64,000 bases of DNA from Candidatus Staskawiczbacteria bacterium (GCA_903928565.1 CAIYRH010000007.1:14139-78138), one strand, 5' to 3'; shown: positions 16,174-63,508, counted from the stretch's first letter. The notes: generated by a model from the letters alone, not told the origin. Numbers and translations: made by a program.

Positions 16174-16518
16174 ATGCTACCCAAAGTAAACAGAATAAGA
16201 AAGAAAAAAGATTTTGAGGCAATTTTTAAAAATTCTAAGAGCTTTAAAAACAACCTCTTTATTTTTAAAATTGCAAAAAACAACTTAGGCATTAACAGAT
16301 TTGGATTTGTTGTTAGCCAGAAGGTTTCTAAAAAAGCAGTTGTTAGAAATAAGATTAGAAGAAGGTTGTCGGAAATAATAAAGGCAAAATTTCATACTAT
16401 AAAGAATGGCACAGACATTGTTATAATTGCACTGCCAGGAATTGATAAAAGAGAATTTTCTGAAATGAACGAAGGGGTGGAAAAAACAATTATTAAATTA
16501 GGACTTATTTTAAAATAA
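16174..16518 (+). CDS. rnpA: RNase P protein component
   Basis: 114 aa, basic, with the KVNRIRKKKDFEAIF motif. Follows rpmH. Confidence 0.85.
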   Translation: MLPKVNRIRKKKDFEAIFKNSKSFKNNLFIFKIAKNNLGINRFGFVVSQKVSKKAVVRNKIRRRLSEIIKAKFHTIKNGTDIVIIALPGIDKREFSEMNEGVEKTIIKLGLILK

Positions 16519-16521
16519 AAA

Positions 16522-17262
16522 ATGTTTCAATCTATAGTAAATTTTTTTTATATTATATTATACCAGCCATTATTTAATTTATTGGTATGGCTGTATAATT
16601 CTACGCCCGGGCACGATTTTGGCATTGCAATAATTCTTTTAACAATTATTATTAGGGTTGTGCTCTACCCCACTTCCGTGAAGGCTGTAAAATCGCAAAA
16701 AGGTTTGCAAAAGTTGCAACCTTTAATGAAAGAAATTCAAGAAAAATATAAAGACGATAAAGAAAAGCAGGCAAAAGAAATGTTGGCTCTTTATAAAAGA
16801 GAAAAAATAAATCCCTTTTCTGGATTACTTCTCACGTTTATACAAATACCAATCTTAATAGCGCTTTACCGAGTTTTTTGGGACGGGCTTAACCAGAAAA
16901 AATTAACCGTTTTATATAGCTTTGTAGCTAATCCAATTCAAATAAACCCTCTATTTTTACATTTGGTAAATTTATCTAAGCCAAACATAATTCTTGCTAT
17001 ATTGGCAGGAATAACCCAGTATTTCCAGACAAAAATGTTGCTTCCTAAACACCAAATTGACCCGGCCAAGAAGAGCAAAGAAGTTGATGTTTCACAAATG
17101 ATGCAAAAACAGATGGTTTATTTTATGCCAGTTATTACCGTTATAATTCTTTTAGGATTGCCTTCTGCACTAGGATTATATTGGACAGTAAGCGGAATAT
17201 TTTCTGTAATTCAACAGTACTTTATATTTAAGAAGAAAAAACCAGAATTAGCAAAAATTTAA
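16522..17262 (+). CDS. yidC: Membrane protein insertase YidC (short form)
   Basis: Five TM helices. Conserved LYPTSVKAVKSQKGLQKLQPLMKEIQEKYKDD and INPFSG motifs. In the rnpA-yidC-jag order. Confidence 0.85.
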   Translation: MFQSIVNFFYIILYQPLFNLLVWLYNSTPGHDFGIAIILLTIIIRVVLYPTSVKAVKSQKGLQKLQPLMKEIQEKYKDDKEKQAKEMLALYKREKINPFSGLLLTFIQIPILIALYRVFWDGLNQKKLTVLYSFVANPIQINPLFLHLVNLSKPNIILAILAGITQYFQTKMLLPKHQIDPAKKSKEVDVSQMMQKQMVYFMPVITVIILLGLPSALGLYWTVSGIFSVIQQYFIFKKKKPELAKI

Positions 17263-17265
17263 AAC

Positions 17266-17742
17266 ATGGAAGATCAAGAAAAAAAAATAAAAGAAGCGGT
17301 TTCAGAATTTTTTGAAAAAATGACAATGCCGGTTTTAGATGTGGCCGTTGAATTTTCTTTTGTTGAAAAAGGCGAGGAGAAAACTGAAGTTATTAGTTTG
17401 GACATAAAAATAGACGATCCGCCTGTTTTGATTGGTCAGCAGGGGCAAACACTTTTTGAAATTCAGCGTATTTTGAGAATGGTTTTGAATAAAAAATTAG
17501 GGAAAACATTTTATTTAAATTTAGATATAGACGGTTATAAGAAAAAGAAAATAGAATATTTGAAATATTTAGTTAAAGATTATGCCGACAGTGTTGCAAT
17601 GACTGGAAAAGAAAAAGAGCTTTTACCAATGTCTGCCTACGAAAGAAGAATTGTTCATGCAGAGTTGTCCCAACGAACAGATGTAAAAACGGAAAGCCGT
17701 GGCGAAGGGTCAGAAAGGCACATAGTAATAACGCCAAAGTAA
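17266..17742 (+). CDS. jag: KH/R3H-domain RNA-binding protein (Jag-like)
   Basis: KH-like LIGQQGQTLFEIQRIL and R3H motif ERRIVHAELS. Lies downstream of yidC. Confidence 0.8.
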   Translation: MEDQEKKIKEAVSEFFEKMTMPVLDVAVEFSFVEKGEEKTEVISLDIKIDDPPVLIGQQGQTLFEIQRILRMVLNKKLGKTFYLNLDIDGYKKKKIEYLKYLVKDYADSVAMTGKEKELLPMSAYERRIVHAELSQRTDVKTESRGEGSERHIVITPK

Positions 17743-37433: not shown

Positions 37434-37542
37434 AAAGCCAGACTATTGGGATTATGGCAAGTGCCACAAAAGGCCTTTGTCATAGTTCCAATATTGAAAA
37501 TTTTCAATTCCAAACCAACAATCAACCCCCACAACCAACCCC

Positions 37543-57796: not shown

Positions 57797-57824
57797 ACCG
57801 CTTAGGCGGTAGCGCTTAAGCGGT
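57797..57824. repeat. Two adjacent copies of the 14-bp palindrome family (ACCGCTTAGGCGGT, AGCGCTTAAGCGGT) directly upstream of comM
   Basis: They end 12 nt before the comM ATG (57836). Confidence 0.8.
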
Positions 57825-57835
57825 ATGTAAAAAAT

Positions 57836-59383
57836 ATGCTTATTAAAGTGCCAAGTGTGGTGAATTTAGGTTTAGAAACAATAAAGGTTGATATTGAAAT
57901 TAACCTAGCCAATAAGGGTTTGCCCGGGTTTGAAATTGTGGGGCTGGCGGGCAAGGCGGTAGACGAAAGCAAAGAAAGAGTGCGAACAGCCATTTTAAGT
58001 AGCGACGTTGATTTCCCACAAAAGAAAATTACGGTGAACATGGCCCCCGCCGACGTGCCCAAAGAGGGCTCAATGTACGACCTGCCAATTGCCCTTGGAA
58101 TTTTAAGCAGTGTATTAGAATTTAAAATTCCAGAAAAATCTTTATTCTTAGGTGAACTGTCATTTGACGGTAGCTTGCGCCACACAAAGGGCGCTTTTTT
58201 AGCGGCACTTTTTGCAAAAGAATCGGGTTACACAAATTTATATGTTCCAAAAGATTCGGCCAATGAAGCCGCCGCCATTAAGGGAGTTAAAGTTTTTCCG
58301 GTTGAAGATATTGCTCAACTTTGTAGACATTTTTTGGGATTTCAAAAAGATGTTCCAGAAATTTTTCCCATTGTTTATAAACAATCTAAAAATGAAAACA
58401 ATGTAGTTGTTGAATTTGATATGAAAGAAGTTTTGGGCCAAGAACAAGCCAAAAGAGCAACAGAAATTGCCGCTGCCGGTGGGCATAATATTATAATGAT
58501 TGGCTCGCCAGGTTCGGGTAAAACAATGTTGGCGCGCGCGTTGCCTGGAATTTTGCCGCCGTTAAATGAGGCAGAAAGTTTGGAAGTAACAAAAATATTT
58601 TCGGCCTCGGGTGGAATTCCACCGGGTGGAAGTTTAATAACAACCCGTCAGTTTCGCTCGCCACATCATACGGCTTCACTTGCGGGTTTGGTTGGTGGTG
58701 GTAGTAAACCACAGCCAGGTGAAATTAGTTTGGCTCACCGCGGAGTTTTATTTTTAGATGAATTTAATGAATTCCCGCGCGCAATTATGGAGGCACTCCG
58801 CCAACCATTAGAAGACGGTTATTTAACAATTTCGCGAAGTAGGCAACGCATAACTTACCCGGCCGATTTTATGTTGGTGGCCAGTGCCAACCCCTGCCCT
58901 TGCGGGTATGCCTTGCACCCAAAAAGGAGTTGCAACTGTAGCCAAAATCAAATTCAAAAGTATCAGAAAAGAATTTCTGGGCCAATTTTAGACAGAATTG
59001 ATTTGCATATTTCTGTTATGCCTGTTGACGCAACAGAGTTTGAAGACAACCAAAAAAATTCAGAATTTTTGGAGCCCTCAGATAAAATACGGCAAAGAGT
59101 AATGCAGGCGCGGGCAAAACAAGAAGCTCGTTTTGGCGCAGAAACAATTTGCTCAAACAGCCAAATGAAAAATAGCCATATTAAAAAATATTGCAAACTA
59201 GCAAAAGATGTTGAGGCAATTTTACGGCAGGCAAGTTTAAAATTTAATTTGTCGGCTAGAAGCTACATGAAAATGATAAAGGTGGCGCGCACTATTGCCG
59301 ACTTAGCTGGAGAAGCAGAAATTTCTGTAAACCACATGGCCGAGGCTTTGCAATATTCACCAAAAAATTTCGAAACAGCATAA
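57836..59383 (+). CDS. comM: YifB/ComM-family Mg-chelatase-like AAA+ ATPase
   Basis: Lon-protease-like N-domain, Walker A IGSPGSGKTMLA, Walker B VLFLDEFNEF, and a C-terminal Mg_chelatase_C-like region. Confidence 0.9.
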   Translation: MLIKVPSVVNLGLETIKVDIEINLANKGLPGFEIVGLAGKAVDESKERVRTAILSSDVDFPQKKITVNMAPADVPKEGSMYDLPIALGILSSVLEFKIPEKSLFLGELSFDGSLRHTKGAFLAALFAKESGYTNLYVPKDSANEAAAIKGVKVFPVEDIAQLCRHFLGFQKDVPEIFPIVYKQSKNENNVVVEFDMKEVLGQEQAKRATEIAAAGGHNIIMIGSPGSGKTMLARALPGILPPLNEAESLEVTKIFSASGGIPPGGSLITTRQFRSPHHTASLAGLVGGGSKPQPGEISLAHRGVLFLDEFNEFPRAIMEALRQPLEDGYLTISRSRQRITYPADFMLVASANPCPCGYALHPKRSCNCSQNQIQKYQKRISGPILDRIDLHISVMPVDATEFEDNQKNSEFLEPSDKIRQRVMQARAKQEARFGAETICSNSQMKNSHIKKYCKLAKDVEAILRQASLKFNLSARSYMKMIKVARTIADLAGEAEISVNHMAEALQYSPKNFETA

Positions 59384-59533
59384 TCACTCAGGTATTTGCT
59401 TCAGAAACACAGCGTCGTTTGAAATCGCATTTTAAATTTATACAATTTCAAACGCGCTTGTAACTCAGCGCCCACAACGGGGCGCTTCCGTTACCGTTTC
59501 TTTCGCAAAAACCTTCGCTATTTATAAGTAAAC

Positions 59534-59559
59534 AAAAAAGGGGTTAGGCCCCTTTTTTT
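59534..59559. terminator. Bidirectional intrinsic terminator
   Basis: aaaaaa-GGGG-ttagg-CCCC-ttttttt. The stop codon of the 233-aa gene lies in the loop. Confidence 0.55.
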
Positions 59560-60245
59560 GTTTCTTCGGTTTCTGAGAAGTTTCCATCTTCAAACCTAAT
59601 CCCCTCTTGTGACTCGCCAAAAGGCGGGTCTTTTTTTGGCGCGTGAAGTTGCTTTTGAAGATAATTAATTTGAGACACTAACAACTGTTTTGTATTTCTT
59701 GCGTCGCCAATTACCTTTTCTATTATGCCCTGCATAAATTTTTCTCTTTCTATTAGTTCGTTATCTTTGGCCTTATAGTCGCCAAGCAGGGACTCGTATT
59801 TTTTAATCCAATCCTTTTTCTCGGCCCGGTCTTCTTTTAAGAGTTCTAAAAACTCTCGGTCAATGGCTACCTGATTATCCGCTAAGGCAGATTCGCTTAG
59901 GCGGTTAAGTTCGGCTTGCGAGGGTGCTTCTGGCGGGACCGCATAAGCGGTACCGCTTAAGCGGTCTGGGGTACCGCTTAAGCGGTTTTGGCTGTTTTCG
60001 TCGGACCGCTTAAGCGGTTCCGCATAAGCGGTTTCTTTGGCCACGGCGTCCAGTTCTTTTACCCAAAAATCTTCTTTCAAAAGAATGATATTTCCAACCC
60101 CTTTGTCGTGCCTTTCGCTTAAATTCCCCTCTAATTTTTGGGGTTCTACCAGTTTATACTTTCGAATTCTTCTTCTAATTCTAATGTCGGCAACATCATA
60201 TTTTTGAATAAATTCTTGTATGGTTAGGAAGTCATTATTGTTCAT
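59544..60245 (-). CDS. Hypothetical DNA-binding-like protein whose gene carries six copies of the 14-bp palindrome
   Basis: 233 aa. The N-terminus FLTIQEFIQKYDVADIRIRRRIRKY looks HTH-like. The central segment is encoded by the palindromes (PLKRS / NRLSGT / DRLSGT). Coiled-coil C-terminus. Confidence 0.5.
   Translation of the reverse strand: MNNNDFLTIQEFIQKYDVADIRIRRRIRKYKLVEPQKLEGNLSERHDKGVGNIILLKEDFWVKELDAVAKETAYAEPLKRSDENSQNRLSGTPDRLSGTAYAVPPEAPSQAELNRLSESALADNQVAIDREFLELLKEDRAEKKDWIKKYESLLGDYKAKDNELIEREKFMQGIIEKVIGDARNTKQLLVSQINYLQKQLHAPKKDPPFGESQEGIRFEDGNFSETEETKKGA
59892..60032. repeat. Intragenic array of six 14-bp palindromes (consensus ACCGCTTAAGCGGT)
   Basis: Copies start at 59892, 59938, 59952, 59973, 60005 and 60019. 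Layout from 59938: pair, 7 nt, single, 18 nt, pair. Confidence 0.85.
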
Positions 60246-60264
60246 TTTTTTGTTTTTTTTAGAG

Positions 60265-60347
60265 ACCGCTTAAGCGGTACCGCTTAAGCGGTGGGGGTAC
60301 CGCTTAAGCGCTTTTGGTGACCGCTTAAGCGGTATCGCTTAAGCGGT
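60265..60347. repeat. Upstream array of five 14-bp palindromes (consensus ACCGCTTAAGCGGT)
   Basis: Copies start at 60265, 60279, 60299, 60320 and 60334. Layout: pair, 6 nt, single, 7 nt, pair. Located between the predicted promoter and the start codon of the 233-aa gene. Confidence 0.85.
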
Positions 60348-60750: not shown

Positions 60751-61359
60751 ATGGAAAGAAAAATAAACACTTTTATATTTGATTGCTTTGGCGTTGTATG
60801 TGACTCTGTGTTGAGCAATTGGTATAAAGACAAAATAGTTAAGCGCGGGCTGAAAGACGAAAATTTAAAAAACGTTTTTGAACAGTTTGATTTGGGGAAA
60901 TTAACAGAAGAAGACATTATTACTTATTTTTTAAAATATGAGGGAATCAATTCAACTAGGGAAGAGCTTCGAGAAGAAATAGACAGCTATTTAAAATTAG
61001 ATGAAGTCTTAGCAGACGCAATTATGAAATTAAAGGAAAAAGGCTTTAAAACAGTGCTTTTATCTAATGCGAATGCCGCATTTTTTCATAGGAAAATTTA
61101 TACAACTTACCCCTAATTTAAAAGTCTTTTTAATAATATTATTATTTCCTCTGAAGTTGGAATGACAAAGCCAGGAAAAGGCATATATGTGCATGCACTT
61201 GATAAAGTTGGTTCGACGCCGGAGGAATCTTTATTTATTGATGACAGCCAAGCAAATGTTGACGGCGCAGTAGCAGTCGGCATGGTGGGGTTTCTGTATA
61301 CCGATGTTGCATCTTTTTTAAATTATTTAAAAACTTTAGGAATTAATTTAGATAATTAA
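60751..61359 (+). pseudogene. HAD-superfamily hydrolase interrupted by a single in-frame TAA
   Basis: ORFs 60751-61116 and 61162-61359 are in the same frame. Across the stop the sequence reads ...IYTTYP*FKSLFNNIIISSEVGMTKPGKGIY, a continuous HAD motif II/III region. TAA at 61114-61116. Confidence 0.6.
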
Positions 61360-61364
61360 TTTTT

Positions 61365-61754
61365 ATGGCGGAGCATAATTATGTGGGAAAAGTTGGGGAG
61401 GAGCTGGCTAAAAAATATTTGGAGGGGGAGGGGTATAAAATTTTAGAACAAAATTACCGGACAAAATATGCCGAGATTGATTTGGTGTGCGAGTCCGCCC
61501 AAGGCGGATTGCTCTTTGGTAAAAAAGCTAAGACACTTGTGTTTGTGGAGGTGCGCACAAAAGTTGGTGAAAATTTTGGAAGCCCCGAAGATACAATAAA
61601 TAAAGCGAAGTTGTGGAAAGTTTTGCAAAATGCAAAAAGCTATACTGGGTTTAAGAGGTGGGATGGGCCTTGTAGGATTGATGCAATATGCATTGTTTTA
61701 AGAGGCGACTATTCTGTTGTACGTCTAACGCATCACGAAAATATTGTCACGTAG
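61365..61754 (+). CDS. yraN: YraN-family (UPF0102) endonuclease-like protein
   Basis: GEELAKKYLEGEGYKILEQNYRTKYAEIDLVCE...LVFVEVRTK. Confidence 0.75.
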   Translation: MAEHNYVGKVGEELAKKYLEGEGYKILEQNYRTKYAEIDLVCESAQGGLLFGKKAKTLVFVEVRTKVGENFGSPEDTINKAKLWKVLQNAKSYTGFKRWDGPCRIDAICIVLRGDYSVVRLTHHENIVT

Positions 61755-61764
61755 TTATAACTGC

Positions 61765-61793
61765 TTGACACGGGTTCTTATAAATGAGACAAT
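61765..61793 (+). promoter_or_regulatory. Candidate promoter (TTGACA-17-GACAAT); near-duplicate of the nusA promoter
   Basis: ttgacacgggttcttata (61765-) versus ttgacagcgggtttttat (62038-). Confidence 0.35.
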
Positions 61794-61799
61794 GAAGGT

Positions 61800-62017
61800 G
61801 AGGCGGGACACAGTGATGCAGGGTGCATCGTGATGCAAATGCATCAACCGTTCCAATTGGAACAACCCCACCTCAACCGCACCTTCCCAAACTGCTTTCC
61901 GCTTCCCCTTAGGCAACATCGTTGCCACCCCACACCCACCACCATTCTTCACCCACTCACTCAATCAAACCCACCCAAAACATTCTTCTCCCATGCGTCT
62001 CTCACCAGACGCTTTTT
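61800..62017 (+). ncRNA. Candidate noncoding transcript with a 70-nt G-free, C-rich tract
   Basis: Promoter at 61765-61793. Small hairpins (gatgcaaatgcatc, gttccaattggaac). No G between 61925 and 61994 (ccaccccacacccaccacc...cccacccaaaa). Intrinsic terminator gcgtct-ctcacc-agacgc-ttttt at 61995-62017. Only implausible low-complexity ORFs. Confidence 0.35.
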
Positions 62018-62037
62018 CCCTATATGGCCCCGCAATA

Positions 62038-62066
62038 TTGACAGCGGGTTTTTATTTTGCTAAGAT
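62038..62066 (+). promoter_or_regulatory. nusA promoter (TTGACA-17-TAAGAT)
   Basis: ttgaca gcgggtttttattttgc taagat. Confidence 0.45.
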
Positions 62067-62140
62067 AATATAAAGATAAGAAAGATATTTTGTCCGTCTG
62101 ACCACGGGCTTTTATTTTTAAAAAAATTAAAAACAAAAAC

Positions 62141-63508
62141 ATGGATATAAAATCATTCAAAGGAGCTTTGGCTCAAATTGCAGAAGAAAGAGGAATTTCA
62201 CCAGAAAGAGTAATAGAAACAATTGAAGCTGCAATTGCAACAGCTTACAAAAAAGACTATGGCCAAAAAGGACAAAAAATTAAGGCCAAATTTAACCCTT
62301 CATCCGGGGATGTTAAGTTTTGGCAAATAAAATTGGTGGTGGACAATGATATGCTTTACACCGATGAAGAACTTGAAGAAATGCAAGAAAGAAAAGAAAT
62401 TCCTCAAGATGAAGCGCGAGCTGGCGAAGAGCCACCAAAAAAATATGTATTCAACCCCGAAAAACATATAATGATTGACGAGGCCAAAAAAGATTATCCT
62501 AAAATAAAAGTTGGAGAAGAAATTGAAATTGCTTTGGTTTCTAAACAAGATTACGGAAGAATTGCTGCTCAAACAGCAAAGCAAGTTATTTTGCAAAAAA
62601 TTAGAGAAGCCGAAAAAGAAACTGTTTCTGCAGAATATAGAAGTAAAGAAGGAGAAATTATTTCTGGAATTGTGCAGCGCATTGAAGGCCACACAATTTA
62701 CATTGATATTGGAAAAACCTTGGGAATTTTAAATAGAGAAGAGCAAATTCCCGGAGAATTTTACAGACCTGGGCAACGCCTAAAACTTTACATTTCAAAA
62801 GTGGAAGAAACGCCAAAAGGTAGCGTGGTGATACTTTCAAGGGCATACCCAAAATTAGTTTCAAGACTGTTTGAATTAGAAGTGCCCGAGGTTGCTGCCG
62901 GCACAGTTGTAATAAAAGCAATTGCGCGTGAGCCTGGTTTTAGAACAAAAATTGCAGTGGAATCTAATGAAGAGGGTGTTGACCCAATTGGAGCTTGCGT
63001 TGGACAGCGTGGAACCAGAATTATGGCGGTAATAAATGAATTGGGTGGAGAAAAAATTGACGTTATAACTTTTGATGAAAAACCTGAAAAATTTATTGCT
63101 AACAGTTTGTCACCCGCAAAAATTATTGGTGTGAAAGTTGAAGATAAAAATACGGCAACTGTTTTTGTGCCAGAAGACCAGCTTTCTTTGGCAATTGGAA
63201 AAGATGGCAGAAATGTAAGGTTGGCTGCACAATTAACTGGCTGGAAAATAGATATTAAGCCAACAGAAGTTGAGCCAGAACCCGCCGACGCCGAAGGCTC
63301 CGGCGAGGCGAAGGAAGAAGGGGCCGAAGTCGAAGGAAAAAAGGCAAAGAAAACAAAGAAACCCGCCACCGCAAAAGCTAAGAAGGCTAAAAAAGTTGTT
63401 GAGGATGAAGAAGCCGAAAATGATGAAGCCGATGTTGAAAATGCCGATGAAGTTGACGCAGCCGATGAAGAAAAACCCGAGCCAGTTGAAGGAGTTACAG
63501 AAGAATAA
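62141..63508 (+). CDS. nusA: Transcription termination/antitermination factor NusA with a charged C-terminal tail
   Basis: NusA N-domain, S1 (GEIISGIVQRIEGHTIYIDIG), and two KH domains (GACVGQRGTRI, LAIGKDGRNVRLAAQLTGWKIDI). Lys/Glu/Asp-rich tail. Confidence 0.9.
   Translation: MDIKSFKGALAQIAEERGISPERVIETIEAAIATAYKKDYGQKGQKIKAKFNPSSGDVKFWQIKLVVDNDMLYTDEELEEMQERKEIPQDEARAGEEPPKKYVFNPEKHIMIDEAKKDYPKIKVGEEIEIALVSKQDYGRIAAQTAKQVILQKIREAEKETVSAEYRSKEGEIISGIVQRIEGHTIYIDIGKTLGILNREEQIPGEFYRPGQRLKLYISKVEETPKGSVVILSRAYPKLVSRLFELEVPEVAAGTVVIKAIAREPGFRTKIAVESNEEGVDPIGACVGQRGTRIMAVINELGGEKIDVITFDEKPEKFIANSLSPAKIIGVKVEDKNTATVFVPEDQLSLAIGKDGRNVRLAAQLTGWKIDIKPTEVEPEPADAEGSGEAKEEGAEVEGKKAKKTKKPATAKAKKAKKVVEDEEAENDEADVENADEVDAADEEKPEPVEGVTEE

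Follow-up and report, generated by a model that had tools for sequence, protein, structure and literature searches.

A stand-alone small-RNA gene lies between yraN and nusA in the 64,000-nt stretch of Candidatus Staskawiczbacteria DNA that we analysed (hereafter the window). Its product, an RNA of about 218 nt encoded at 61800-62017 on the plus strand, can be assigned with high confidence to an undescribed RNA family. The gene has its own promoter and intrinsic terminator, contains no conserved ORF and is conserved in relatives. Four modules are common to the units of the family: a promoter of their own, a folded 5' domain, an unpaired tail of 29-90 nt and an intrinsic terminator. The family is new, being absent from Rfam and matched by nothing in the literature that we searched, and in the loci examined it is confined, as far as seen, to Candidatus Staskawiczbacteria (CPR/Patescibacteria).

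A previous, sequence-only reading of the region had proposed that it is transcribed as a noncoding unit bounded by a promoter and a terminator of its own, and the features it described at 61765-62066 (two promoters, small hairpins, a G-free tract and a terminator) are all present there. The upstream neighbour is yraN (UPF0102; 61365-61754, plus strand), an ORF supported by Pfam (PF02021, E = 2.8e-22), by 721 homologues and by matches to solved structures. At its end lies an imperfect palindrome (61745-61770, plus strand; inverted repeat I1, 87% complementary), the 3' arm of which is the -35 hexamer of the small-RNA promoter; this layout of a terminator hairpin with an embedded -35 is repeated in relatives. 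The promoter, promoter P1 (TTGACA-17-GACAAT; 61765-61793, plus strand), matches the consensus at 10 of 12 positions and has an extended -10 (TG-n-GACAAT). The transcript is closed by the intrinsic terminator T1 (61995-62017, plus strand), which has a 6-bp stem with a 6-nt loop (61995-62012) followed by TTTTT. Both ends are predicted: the start (±3 nt) from the position of the -10, and the end from the U-run of T1. Between them lie the folded 5' domain (61800-61911, plus strand), a hairpin H4 (GGCAAC-AUC-GUUGCC; 61912-61926, plus strand) and, directly 3' of it, a G-free, C/A-rich single-stranded tail (61927-61994, plus strand).

The odd composition pointed out earlier was confirmed. The segment of 302 nt is 33% C, against 18.7% in the 64-kb window, and the excess of C over G peaks, for all 64 kb, in the 100-nt windows around 61925-61994. 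This interval comprises exactly 70 nt without G and is the second-longest G-free run of the window; from base composition alone, about 0.01 runs of such length are expected on both strands. The tail itself is 68 nt long (34 C, 21 A, 13 U and no G, that is 50% C and 0% G) with a predicted unpaired probability of 1.00. The predicted transcript folds better than its shuffled versions (z = -5.8); its structure lies entirely in the terminator and the first 130 nt, leaving the C-rich stretch unpaired. The small hairpins described earlier are present as well; two of these, at 61813-61829 and 61830-61845, are tandem copies of 16-17 nt.

Homologues were sought by scanning for C-rich, G-poor 60-mers, with a promoter/5'-end pattern, with nhmmer and on contigs encoding YraN homologues. 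Together these searches yielded about 12 homologous units, from genomes and metagenomes of Candidatus Staskawiczbacteria; most lie right after yraN and/or before nusA. In relatives that lack the unit, yraN adjoins a single nusA promoter. The long-type members are the window copy and those at L083 (same strain), L082, L089, L003, L007, L012, L001, L006 and L081. A profile built from seven other members, with the window copy left out, gave one significant match in the 64-kb window, at 61829-61997 (E = 9.8e-5), and a promoter and terminator prediction tool called the same modules in L082, L089 and L003. In these three loci the order is yraN, unit, nusA promoter, nusA. In L007 and L012 the unit is directly 3' of a yraN-like gene, with nusA 1.2-1.5 kb beyond, and in L001 it lies 2 kb upstream of nusA; in all three, unrelated genes with their own signals come after the unit. 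A convergent gene apparently lies 3' of the unit in L006 and L081 (by inspection). Because members precede unrelated or, by inspection, convergent genes, the unit acts independently of the downstream sequence. Shorter, probable relatives were found directly upstream of the nusA promoter (L027, L049) and after a yraN-like gene (L051); their assignment to the family is tentative, made by eye from shared architecture and location, and nhmmer listed only L027 (E = 4.9) and neither of the other two.

No Rfam 15 family, including RsaE (RF01820) and 6C (RF01066), matched the window at gathering thresholds; a permissive search of 61600-62250 gave chance-level matches only (E at least 0.088), and nothing matched the units of 14 related loci. 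Equally, no small RNA described from CPR/Patescibacteria was found in our literature search. Scanning IMG/VR viral contigs with the promoter pattern of the unit gave no matches, and hence no sign of a phage origin there. The distribution of the unit is sporadic, at about 10 of some 90 loci examined; it is either dispensable or located elsewhere in genomes without a spacer copy. The yraN-nusA spacer of most relatives has no unit, that of the 738-kb contig JBAZUH010000001.1 being one example.

The 5' part of the RNA is built alike in the members. Their promoters follow the consensus TTGACrCGGGTTyTT-N9-AnAAT. Within the 5' domain, helix P1, closed by a purine-rich 5' strand, encloses two inner hairpins (helices P2 and P3). 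A pyrimidine/A-rich linker containing UUUACAAYU comes next, then H4, with the family form GGCAG...CUGCC, and the tail; beyond these, the terminator region has the motif YCUCCCCAUG or CCAGG and then the intrinsic terminator, which as T1 does occupies the same place in every homologue. H4 is present in 8 of 8 aligned long-type members, and in L089 by eye; it is 100% paired and has three positions changed on both sides. In the hand alignment of the eight members, helices P1, P3 and H4 are paired in 97.7% of cells and 13 pairs are changed on both sides, pairing figures that are inflated by the fitting of the alignment to the structure. None of 500 shuffles reached the observed value, and sliding the partners by 1-3 columns left 32-68% pairing. 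From an unsupervised alignment of four members, RNAalifold recovered helices P2 and P3 with compensatory changes; helix P1 was not aligned in the unsupervised MAFFT/RNAalifold run, and its support comes from the hand alignment. The matching helices of the members are kept by compensatory substitutions, as those of a structured RNA are, P2 and P3 in the unsupervised alignment and the others in one fitted by hand.

In the window, the domain is closed at 61800-07/61867-74 by homology, or at 61800-08/~61897-905 in the lowest-energy fold, where a different downstream pyrimidine stretch is used (-58.1 kcal/mol, compared with -49.4 kcal/mol for the homology-based helix P1). The exact closing helix of the window copy is therefore uncertain. 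The hairpins inside it are at 61815-29, 61832-45 (the tandem duplicate) and 61850-63, and a pyrimidine-rich linker follows. The window copy thus carries a recent tandem hairpin duplication together with a diverged linker.

Together, the tails of 11 members comprise 613 nt, of which 47% are C and only 15 nt (2.4%) are G, a base that makes up about 21% of the same loci. They are 29-90 nt long, the shortest being that of L012 (29 nt), contain 0-3 G each, and have predicted unpaired probabilities of 0.77-1.00. Their sequence turns over fast, yet some blocks persist: CCACACCCACCAC is common to the window, L082 and L027, CACCACCAUUCU to the window and L089, CCCACUCAAACCAU to L006 and L081, and both GCUAACCCAUAA and CCGCAACCU to L001, L007 and L082. 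The blocks CCACACCCACCAC, AACCCAUAA and CCGCAACCU are conserved in sequence beyond composition. AACCCA occurs in 6 of the 11 tails (1.4 expected) and CCAU in 10 (5.7 expected). Repeats of a motif within a tail, the signature of a sponge, were not significant in the tails tested, save in the window copy (P = 0.04). The G depletion and the persisting blocks together indicate that selection keeps this arm G-free, and hence unfoldable, and maintains a few sequence blocks as well.

Downstream of T1, inspection of the sequence revealed a second hairpin (CCCGC/10-nt loop/GCGGG with a U-run; 62029-62053, plus strand) whose loop contains the -35 of promoter P2 (TTGACA-17-TAAGAT; 62038-62066, plus strand; 10 of 12 consensus matches, with TG before the -10). 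The sequence-only reading had taken P2 for the nusA promoter, and rightly: it is kept, with a leader hairpin behind it, in about 50 Staskawiczbacteria loci. When 61755-62140 was compared with 80 related loci by blastn, only the last 100 nt matched, and these correspond to P2, a purine-rich leader and the hairpin GUCCGUCUGACCACGGRC with a U-tract, found in those ~50 loci; the homologous small-RNA units were missed because of their low-complexity tail and fast divergence. The leader hairpin and U-run (GUCCGUCUGACCACGGGC + UUUUAUUUUU) lie at 62092-62119 (plus strand) in the window. The stem covaries among relatives (GUCUGC/GCAGAC in L049, GUCCGAU/AUCGGAC in L018 and L087), and the element is therefore a conserved leader terminator before nusA. 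Here, then, are the parts of an attenuator, namely a promoter, a short leader and a hairpin with a U-tract, conserved and with a covarying stem, and the second promoter and the leader terminator are the real nusA control region. The downstream gene (62141-63508, plus strand) encodes a NusA with an N-terminal domain, S1 and two KH domains (Pfam NusA_N, S1 and KH; solved NusA structures, E = 1e-80). The relatives of this NusA assign the window to Candidatus Staskawiczbacteria. In B. subtilis, nusA is autoregulated via NusA-stimulated termination in its own leader, and a weak hairpin with an interrupted U-tract is the terminator type that NusA stimulates (PMC12288461). The architecture and conservation of 62038-62119 suggest that NusA may be autoregulated here too.

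The likeness of the two promoters had been attributed to the insertion or copying of a segment into the nusA promoter. In many relatives the yraN stop codon lies in or beside the -35 of a single nusA promoter, with a spacer of 86-220 nt, and promoter P1 sits where these unit-less relatives have their nusA promoter. Compared with genomes in which yraN abuts a single nusA promoter, the window has some 270 additional bases at this place, so the idea of an insertion or duplication holds. Promoters P1 and P2 look alike because of a compact terminator-promoter design and common descent. Such an overlap of terminator and promoter was called by the prediction tool in L089 (692-708) and is seen at 62029-62053 in the window. 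Often, CGGGTTTTT, which follows the -35, doubles as the 3' arm and U-tract of a terminator hairpin that belongs to the preceding gene and holds the -35 in its loop. Relatives differ greatly in their yraN-nusA spacers, where MITE-like palindromic elements, small ORFs and further RNA-like units occur. Small RNA genes are gained and lost at the yraN-nusA junction, which is a hot-spot for such events.

As to how the RNA works, we tentatively lean towards the tail being a rut-like single-stranded platform for an RNA-binding protein rather than an antisense arm, and the credence that we give to a platform includes a small share for a variant involving Nus factors. The small RNA would act in trans, which we favour over an action in cis because unrelated genes lie downstream in L001, L007 and L012 and, by inspection, a convergent gene in L006 and L081. 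Its folded 5' domain would serve as body and recognition element. The tail, kept G-free, would stay a naked single strand with the properties that define a rut site, and this arm would form the interaction surface, on which a protein that binds single-stranded RNA would land or be titrated. Candidate binders are Rho, the KH/R3H protein KhpB (17266-17742) and, from the neighbouring gene, NusA through its S1/KH domains; Pfam confirms that the window encodes both NusA (S1, KH) and a KhpB-like protein with KH and R3H domains. The window tail also contains ACUCAAU, a sequence reportedly present in the NusA-bound RNA of M. tuberculosis, but we give this no weight. Rut sites are C>G-biased and weakly structured, with an optimal length of 60-90 nt, and about 30 nt can bind (PMC12360218); the window tail likewise has a C>G bias, little structure and a length of 68 nt. 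The S1-KH domains of NusA bind short single-stranded C/A/U RNAs such as CACAUUCCA (PMC2724277), and NusA has been proposed as a competitor of Rho for RNA sites (PMC5725501).

Several observations sit less well with a protein platform. The L012 tail, at 29 nt, is shorter than the optimal rut length, and an RNA that ends at a good intrinsic terminator needs no Rho in cis. The within-tail repeats, being no more frequent than chance except in the window, do not favour a multi-site sponge, and the three blocks conserved beyond composition would suit antisense seeds too. The closeness to nusA may be mere ancestral synteny in a variable hot-spot, and most relatives have a yraN-nusA spacer without the unit. 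No rho was found among the 18 window proteins scanned with Pfam, and our literature search on Rho in CPR returned nothing. In its most specific form, the proposal would be that small RNAs of a class peculiar to CPR regulate the termination machinery, loading or sequestering Rho and/or NusA in trans by means of their G-free, rut-like 3' arm, and that the gene, which adjoins nusA, arose when the nusA promoter was duplicated; stated so fully, we regard it as speculative and rather unlikely.

That the conserved C-rich tail blocks instead pair with G-rich mRNA stretches and alter translation or stability is possible, though we consider it slightly less likely. Antisense pairing is the usual mode of stand-alone bacterial small RNAs with a promoter and a terminator, and C-rich unpaired motifs are typical of low-GC, Hfq-independent bacterial small RNAs. 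It would also fit the sequence conservation of tail blocks between distant members, the over-represented AACCCA and CCAU motifs, and the strong GGAGG sites carried by accessory small ORFs in the same hot-spot of relatives. The sequence-only reading had favoured RsaE/RoxS-like pairing with G-rich ribosome-binding sites, and in that form the idea found no support: a Shine-Dalgarno-like motif was found in only ~4 of 59 crude gene calls in the window, start regions being A/U-rich, and target prediction against the translation-initiation regions of the window genes gave weaker pairing (mean -5.8 kcal/mol) than against internal coding windows (-9.9 kcal/mol). An RNA following the logic of RsaE/RoxS, IsrR or 6C would here need non-Shine-Dalgarno targets, or would act on the minority of genes with such sites, some 55 of the 59 having no such motif. 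The best tail duplex among all 60-nt windows of the 64 kb (-43.9 kcal/mol) is not beyond those of shuffled tails (-42 to -57 kcal/mol), and in eight genomes the tail paired with the leader or start of nusA no better than shuffled controls did. Moreover, G depletion spans the whole 29-90 nt, tail length and sequence turn over fast, and conservation along the RNA is highest within the folded 5' domain. The pairing screen covered about 10% of one genome and is accordingly a weak test, which makes the antisense reading somewhat less likely.

The location of the unit invites an explanation in cis, which we consider improbable. Promoter P1 and T1 could form a second attenuation tier or an insulator before the nusA promoter and attenuator, and transcription continuing from P1 would reinforce that of nusA whenever termination factors run short. 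The position of P1, which is that of the nusA promoter in unit-less relatives, the two or three tandem terminator-like hairpins before nusA and the leader-termination autoregulation of B. subtilis nusA (PMC12288461) all fit. However, five units (L001, L006, L007, L012 and L081) are separated from nusA by other genes or, in L006 and L081 by inspection, face a convergent gene, and they still keep promoter, fold, tail and terminator; a simple insulator needs neither a covarying 5' domain nor a conserved G-free tail. Still less probable is a relic, transcribed but decaying or without function, that was left behind when a promoter was duplicated and inserted in a recombination hot-spot. The variability of the spacer, the sporadic occurrence of the unit and the recent duplication and diverged linker of the window copy would be expected of such a relic, but three helices are kept by compensatory changes, 11 diverged tails stay G-depleted and every copy has its promoter and terminator, which indicates purifying selection.

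Three further readings concern particular parts of the unit. The linker after the closing helix might be a BoxA that assembles NusB/NusE, with NusA, as in rRNA or suhB leaders, and some members do show a resemblance: GCTCTTTTAAA of L089 differs at one position from the consensus GYTCTTTAANA (PMC5725501), L012 and L007 have two mismatches, and L001 has ACAAUUUA, identical to a NusA-bound E. coli rrn spacer oligonucleotide (PMC2724277). That consensus may not equal the BoxA of the lineage's own rRNA operons. Still, the window copy and L003 have no match even at three errors, and matches with at most one mismatch occur at the chance rate in this AT-rich genome (29 observed, 25.6 expected). A nut-like RNA is thus very improbable, and the BoxA/nut identity of the linker is an unsupported lead. 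A DNA element, namely a minus-strand G-quadruplex (or plus-strand i-motif) upstream of nusA, had been the second option of the sequence-only reading and is highly improbable. The window minus strand does have six runs of at least three G, including GGGTGGG and GGGTGTGGGG, but the canonical pattern (G3+ N1-7 x4) is absent from the window, where loops are 14-15 nt, and from 10 homologous tails; no four consecutive window runs have loops of at most 7 nt, nor even of at most 12 nt. Homologues have 1-5 C-runs whose number and spacing are not conserved, L049 alone fitting and then with 12-nt loops, and the traits that are conserved (promoter, helices, terminator) are strand-specific RNA features. 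Finally, we give next to no credence to a small protein-coding gene, whether a 77-aa or 39-aa plus-strand ORF or a 69-aa minus-strand ORF. Two overlapping antisense ORFs exist, as had been reported (61830-62063, plus strand; 61755-61964, minus strand), and all units have stop-free plus-strand stretches of 44-75 codons. Open frames are, however, expected of G-poor sequence, which has no TAG or TGA. Conservation at the protein level is seen only in the contig of the same strain, other matches having E of at least 0.014 and low complexity; neither start codon nor frame is conserved, and member lengths differ by non-multiples of three.

RNA-based regulation in CPR/Patescibacteria is almost uncharted, and their tiny genomes have few classical regulators; the genes of the window, in addition, largely do without Shine-Dalgarno sites. 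With its unusual design, its patchy distribution and its occurrence in a poorly understood phylum, this is a new RNA family, and its covariation-supported structure and near G-free tail, kept across diverged species, make it a concrete starting point for tests. A tail that serves Rho, NusA or KhpB as a platform would represent a new way to tune transcription termination, and one that acts as an antisense arm would reveal how C-rich small RNAs operate when no ribosome-binding sites are there to be occluded. The lineage's conserved nusA promoter and attenuator are defined alongside.

Among known systems, rut sites are likewise C-rich, G-poor and weakly structured, as are the tails described here (29-90 nt, 0-3 G, 47% C, predicted unpaired). 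Rut sites, however, act in cis on nascent mRNA upstream of factor-dependent release sites, whereas here the tail forms the 3' arm of an independent RNA whose end is already set by an intrinsic terminator, and the link to Rho is one of composition. CsrB/RsmZ, CrcZ and 6S are comparable in having a folded body with exposed sites, trans action and a fast sequence turnover with conserved architecture. They differ in working by many motif copies (GGA or A-rich CA) or by open-promoter mimicry, no motif being significantly repeated in our tails save weakly in the window (P = 0.04). The NusA-binding nut spacer/BoxC RNAs are comparable in that NusA S1-KH binds extended single-stranded C/A/U-rich RNA with AUU or AUA (PMC2724277), but the affinities described for them are micromolar and they act in cis, on nascent RNA. 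The unit adjoins nusA and the linker of some members resembles the BoxA of rRNA or suhB leaders, a resemblance that is missing in the window copy and not above background. The B. subtilis nusA leader has its counterpart in 62038-62119, which combines a promoter and a short leader with a weak hairpin whose U-tract is interrupted, all ahead of nusA; this element is separate from the C-rich RNA.

Closest in general design are RsaE/RoxS, IsrR and FsrA of Firmicutes and 6C/B11 of Actinobacteria, small RNAs of low-GC or Hfq-less bacteria, which are also stand-alone, with unpaired C-rich motifs, a promoter and an intrinsic terminator. The RsaE/RoxS type presents short C-rich motifs in hairpin loops or short linkers and pairs them with Shine-Dalgarno sequences, whereas here one long G-free tail occurs in a genome nearly without Shine-Dalgarno sites, and no Rfam family matches. 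The C-rich part is the unpaired 29-90-nt tail, the hairpin loops of the 5' domain not being C-rich, and with Shine-Dalgarno-like sites at ~4 of 59 starts the duplexes at start regions are weaker than those within coding sequence. The unit works like the C-rich small RNAs (RsaE/RoxS, 6C) but is no member of them.

The promoter of nusA, together with its purine-rich leader and the hairpin behind it (window 62038-62119), is conserved, and the same arrangement is found in about 50 related loci (for example L002 2925-2975 and L049 2830-2900). The hairpin reads GUCCGUCUGACCACGGRC and is followed by an interrupted U-tract. Covariation was observed in its stem among the related loci, with GGAA replacing the loop in L018 and L087. 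The promoter-hairpin element had no match in Rfam; it resembles a leader attenuator of the NusA type. At window 62029-62053, L089 692-708 and L082 1839-1859, the -35 hexamer is embedded in the preceding gene's terminator hairpin, within its loop or 3' arm, and the terminator U-tract also serves as promoter spacer (CGGGTTTTT). A terminator hairpin with an embedded -35 and a shared U-tract is a compact terminator-promoter design.

In the predicted small RNA between yraN and nusA, the 5' domain (61813-61845) carries a tandemly duplicated hairpin unit of 16-17 nt (GTGATGCAGGGTGCATC and GTGATGCAAATGCATC), a duplication not observed in the other members of the C-rich family. Different structured RNA-like units, each bounded by a promoter and a terminator, lie downstream of yraN in L091 (1640-1850; folding z = -5.8) and L009 (2570-2830). 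These two units share no sequence relationship with the C-rich family and had no Rfam match. The yraN-nusA junction seems to be a hot-spot of small RNA genes. GC-rich elements of approximately 130-140 nt with inverted ends (CGCTCGGCAG...CTGCCTCGC) are also inserted in this region of the relatives (L021 2669-2810, L084 1345-1480, L087 1880-2010, L011 2359-2500, L085 2650-2780, L006 1165-1340 and L081 1200-1310), and resemble mobile palindromes of the MITE or REP kind. The yraN-nusA spacers of L001, L011, L013, L022, L025 and L026 hold small accessory ORFs with strong GGAGG sites, in contrast to the window, where Shine-Dalgarno sequences are nearly absent throughout and start regions are A/U-rich (59 crude gene calls).

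Upstream of this junction, the palindrome CGCTTAAGCG occurs in nine exact copies within window 57813-60345, against 0.01 expected. Five of these form an array (60267-60345) upstream of a minus-strand ORF (59544-60245), which itself contains three copies encoding a repeated RLSG motif. This ORF had no Pfam match; the same gene, palindromes included, is carried by L006 and L085. A HAD-family hydrolase appears to be divided between two ORFs (60751-61116, 121 aa; 61162-61359, 65 aa), which could mean a pseudogene or a gene with a frameshift. The same split was found in the same-strain contig L083.

A further C-rich unstructured RNA segment of this genome is the G-free, C/A-rich 5' leader (ccaaaccaacaatcaacccccacaaccaacccc) at window 37497-37542, which immediately precedes the start codon of an ORF of 516 aa with no match in Pfam. 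The cluster at window 16174-17742 comprises rnpA, yidC and a jag/khpB-like gene with KH and R3H domains; the genome therefore encodes a KhpB-type RNA-binding protein, which is a candidate partner of small RNAs.
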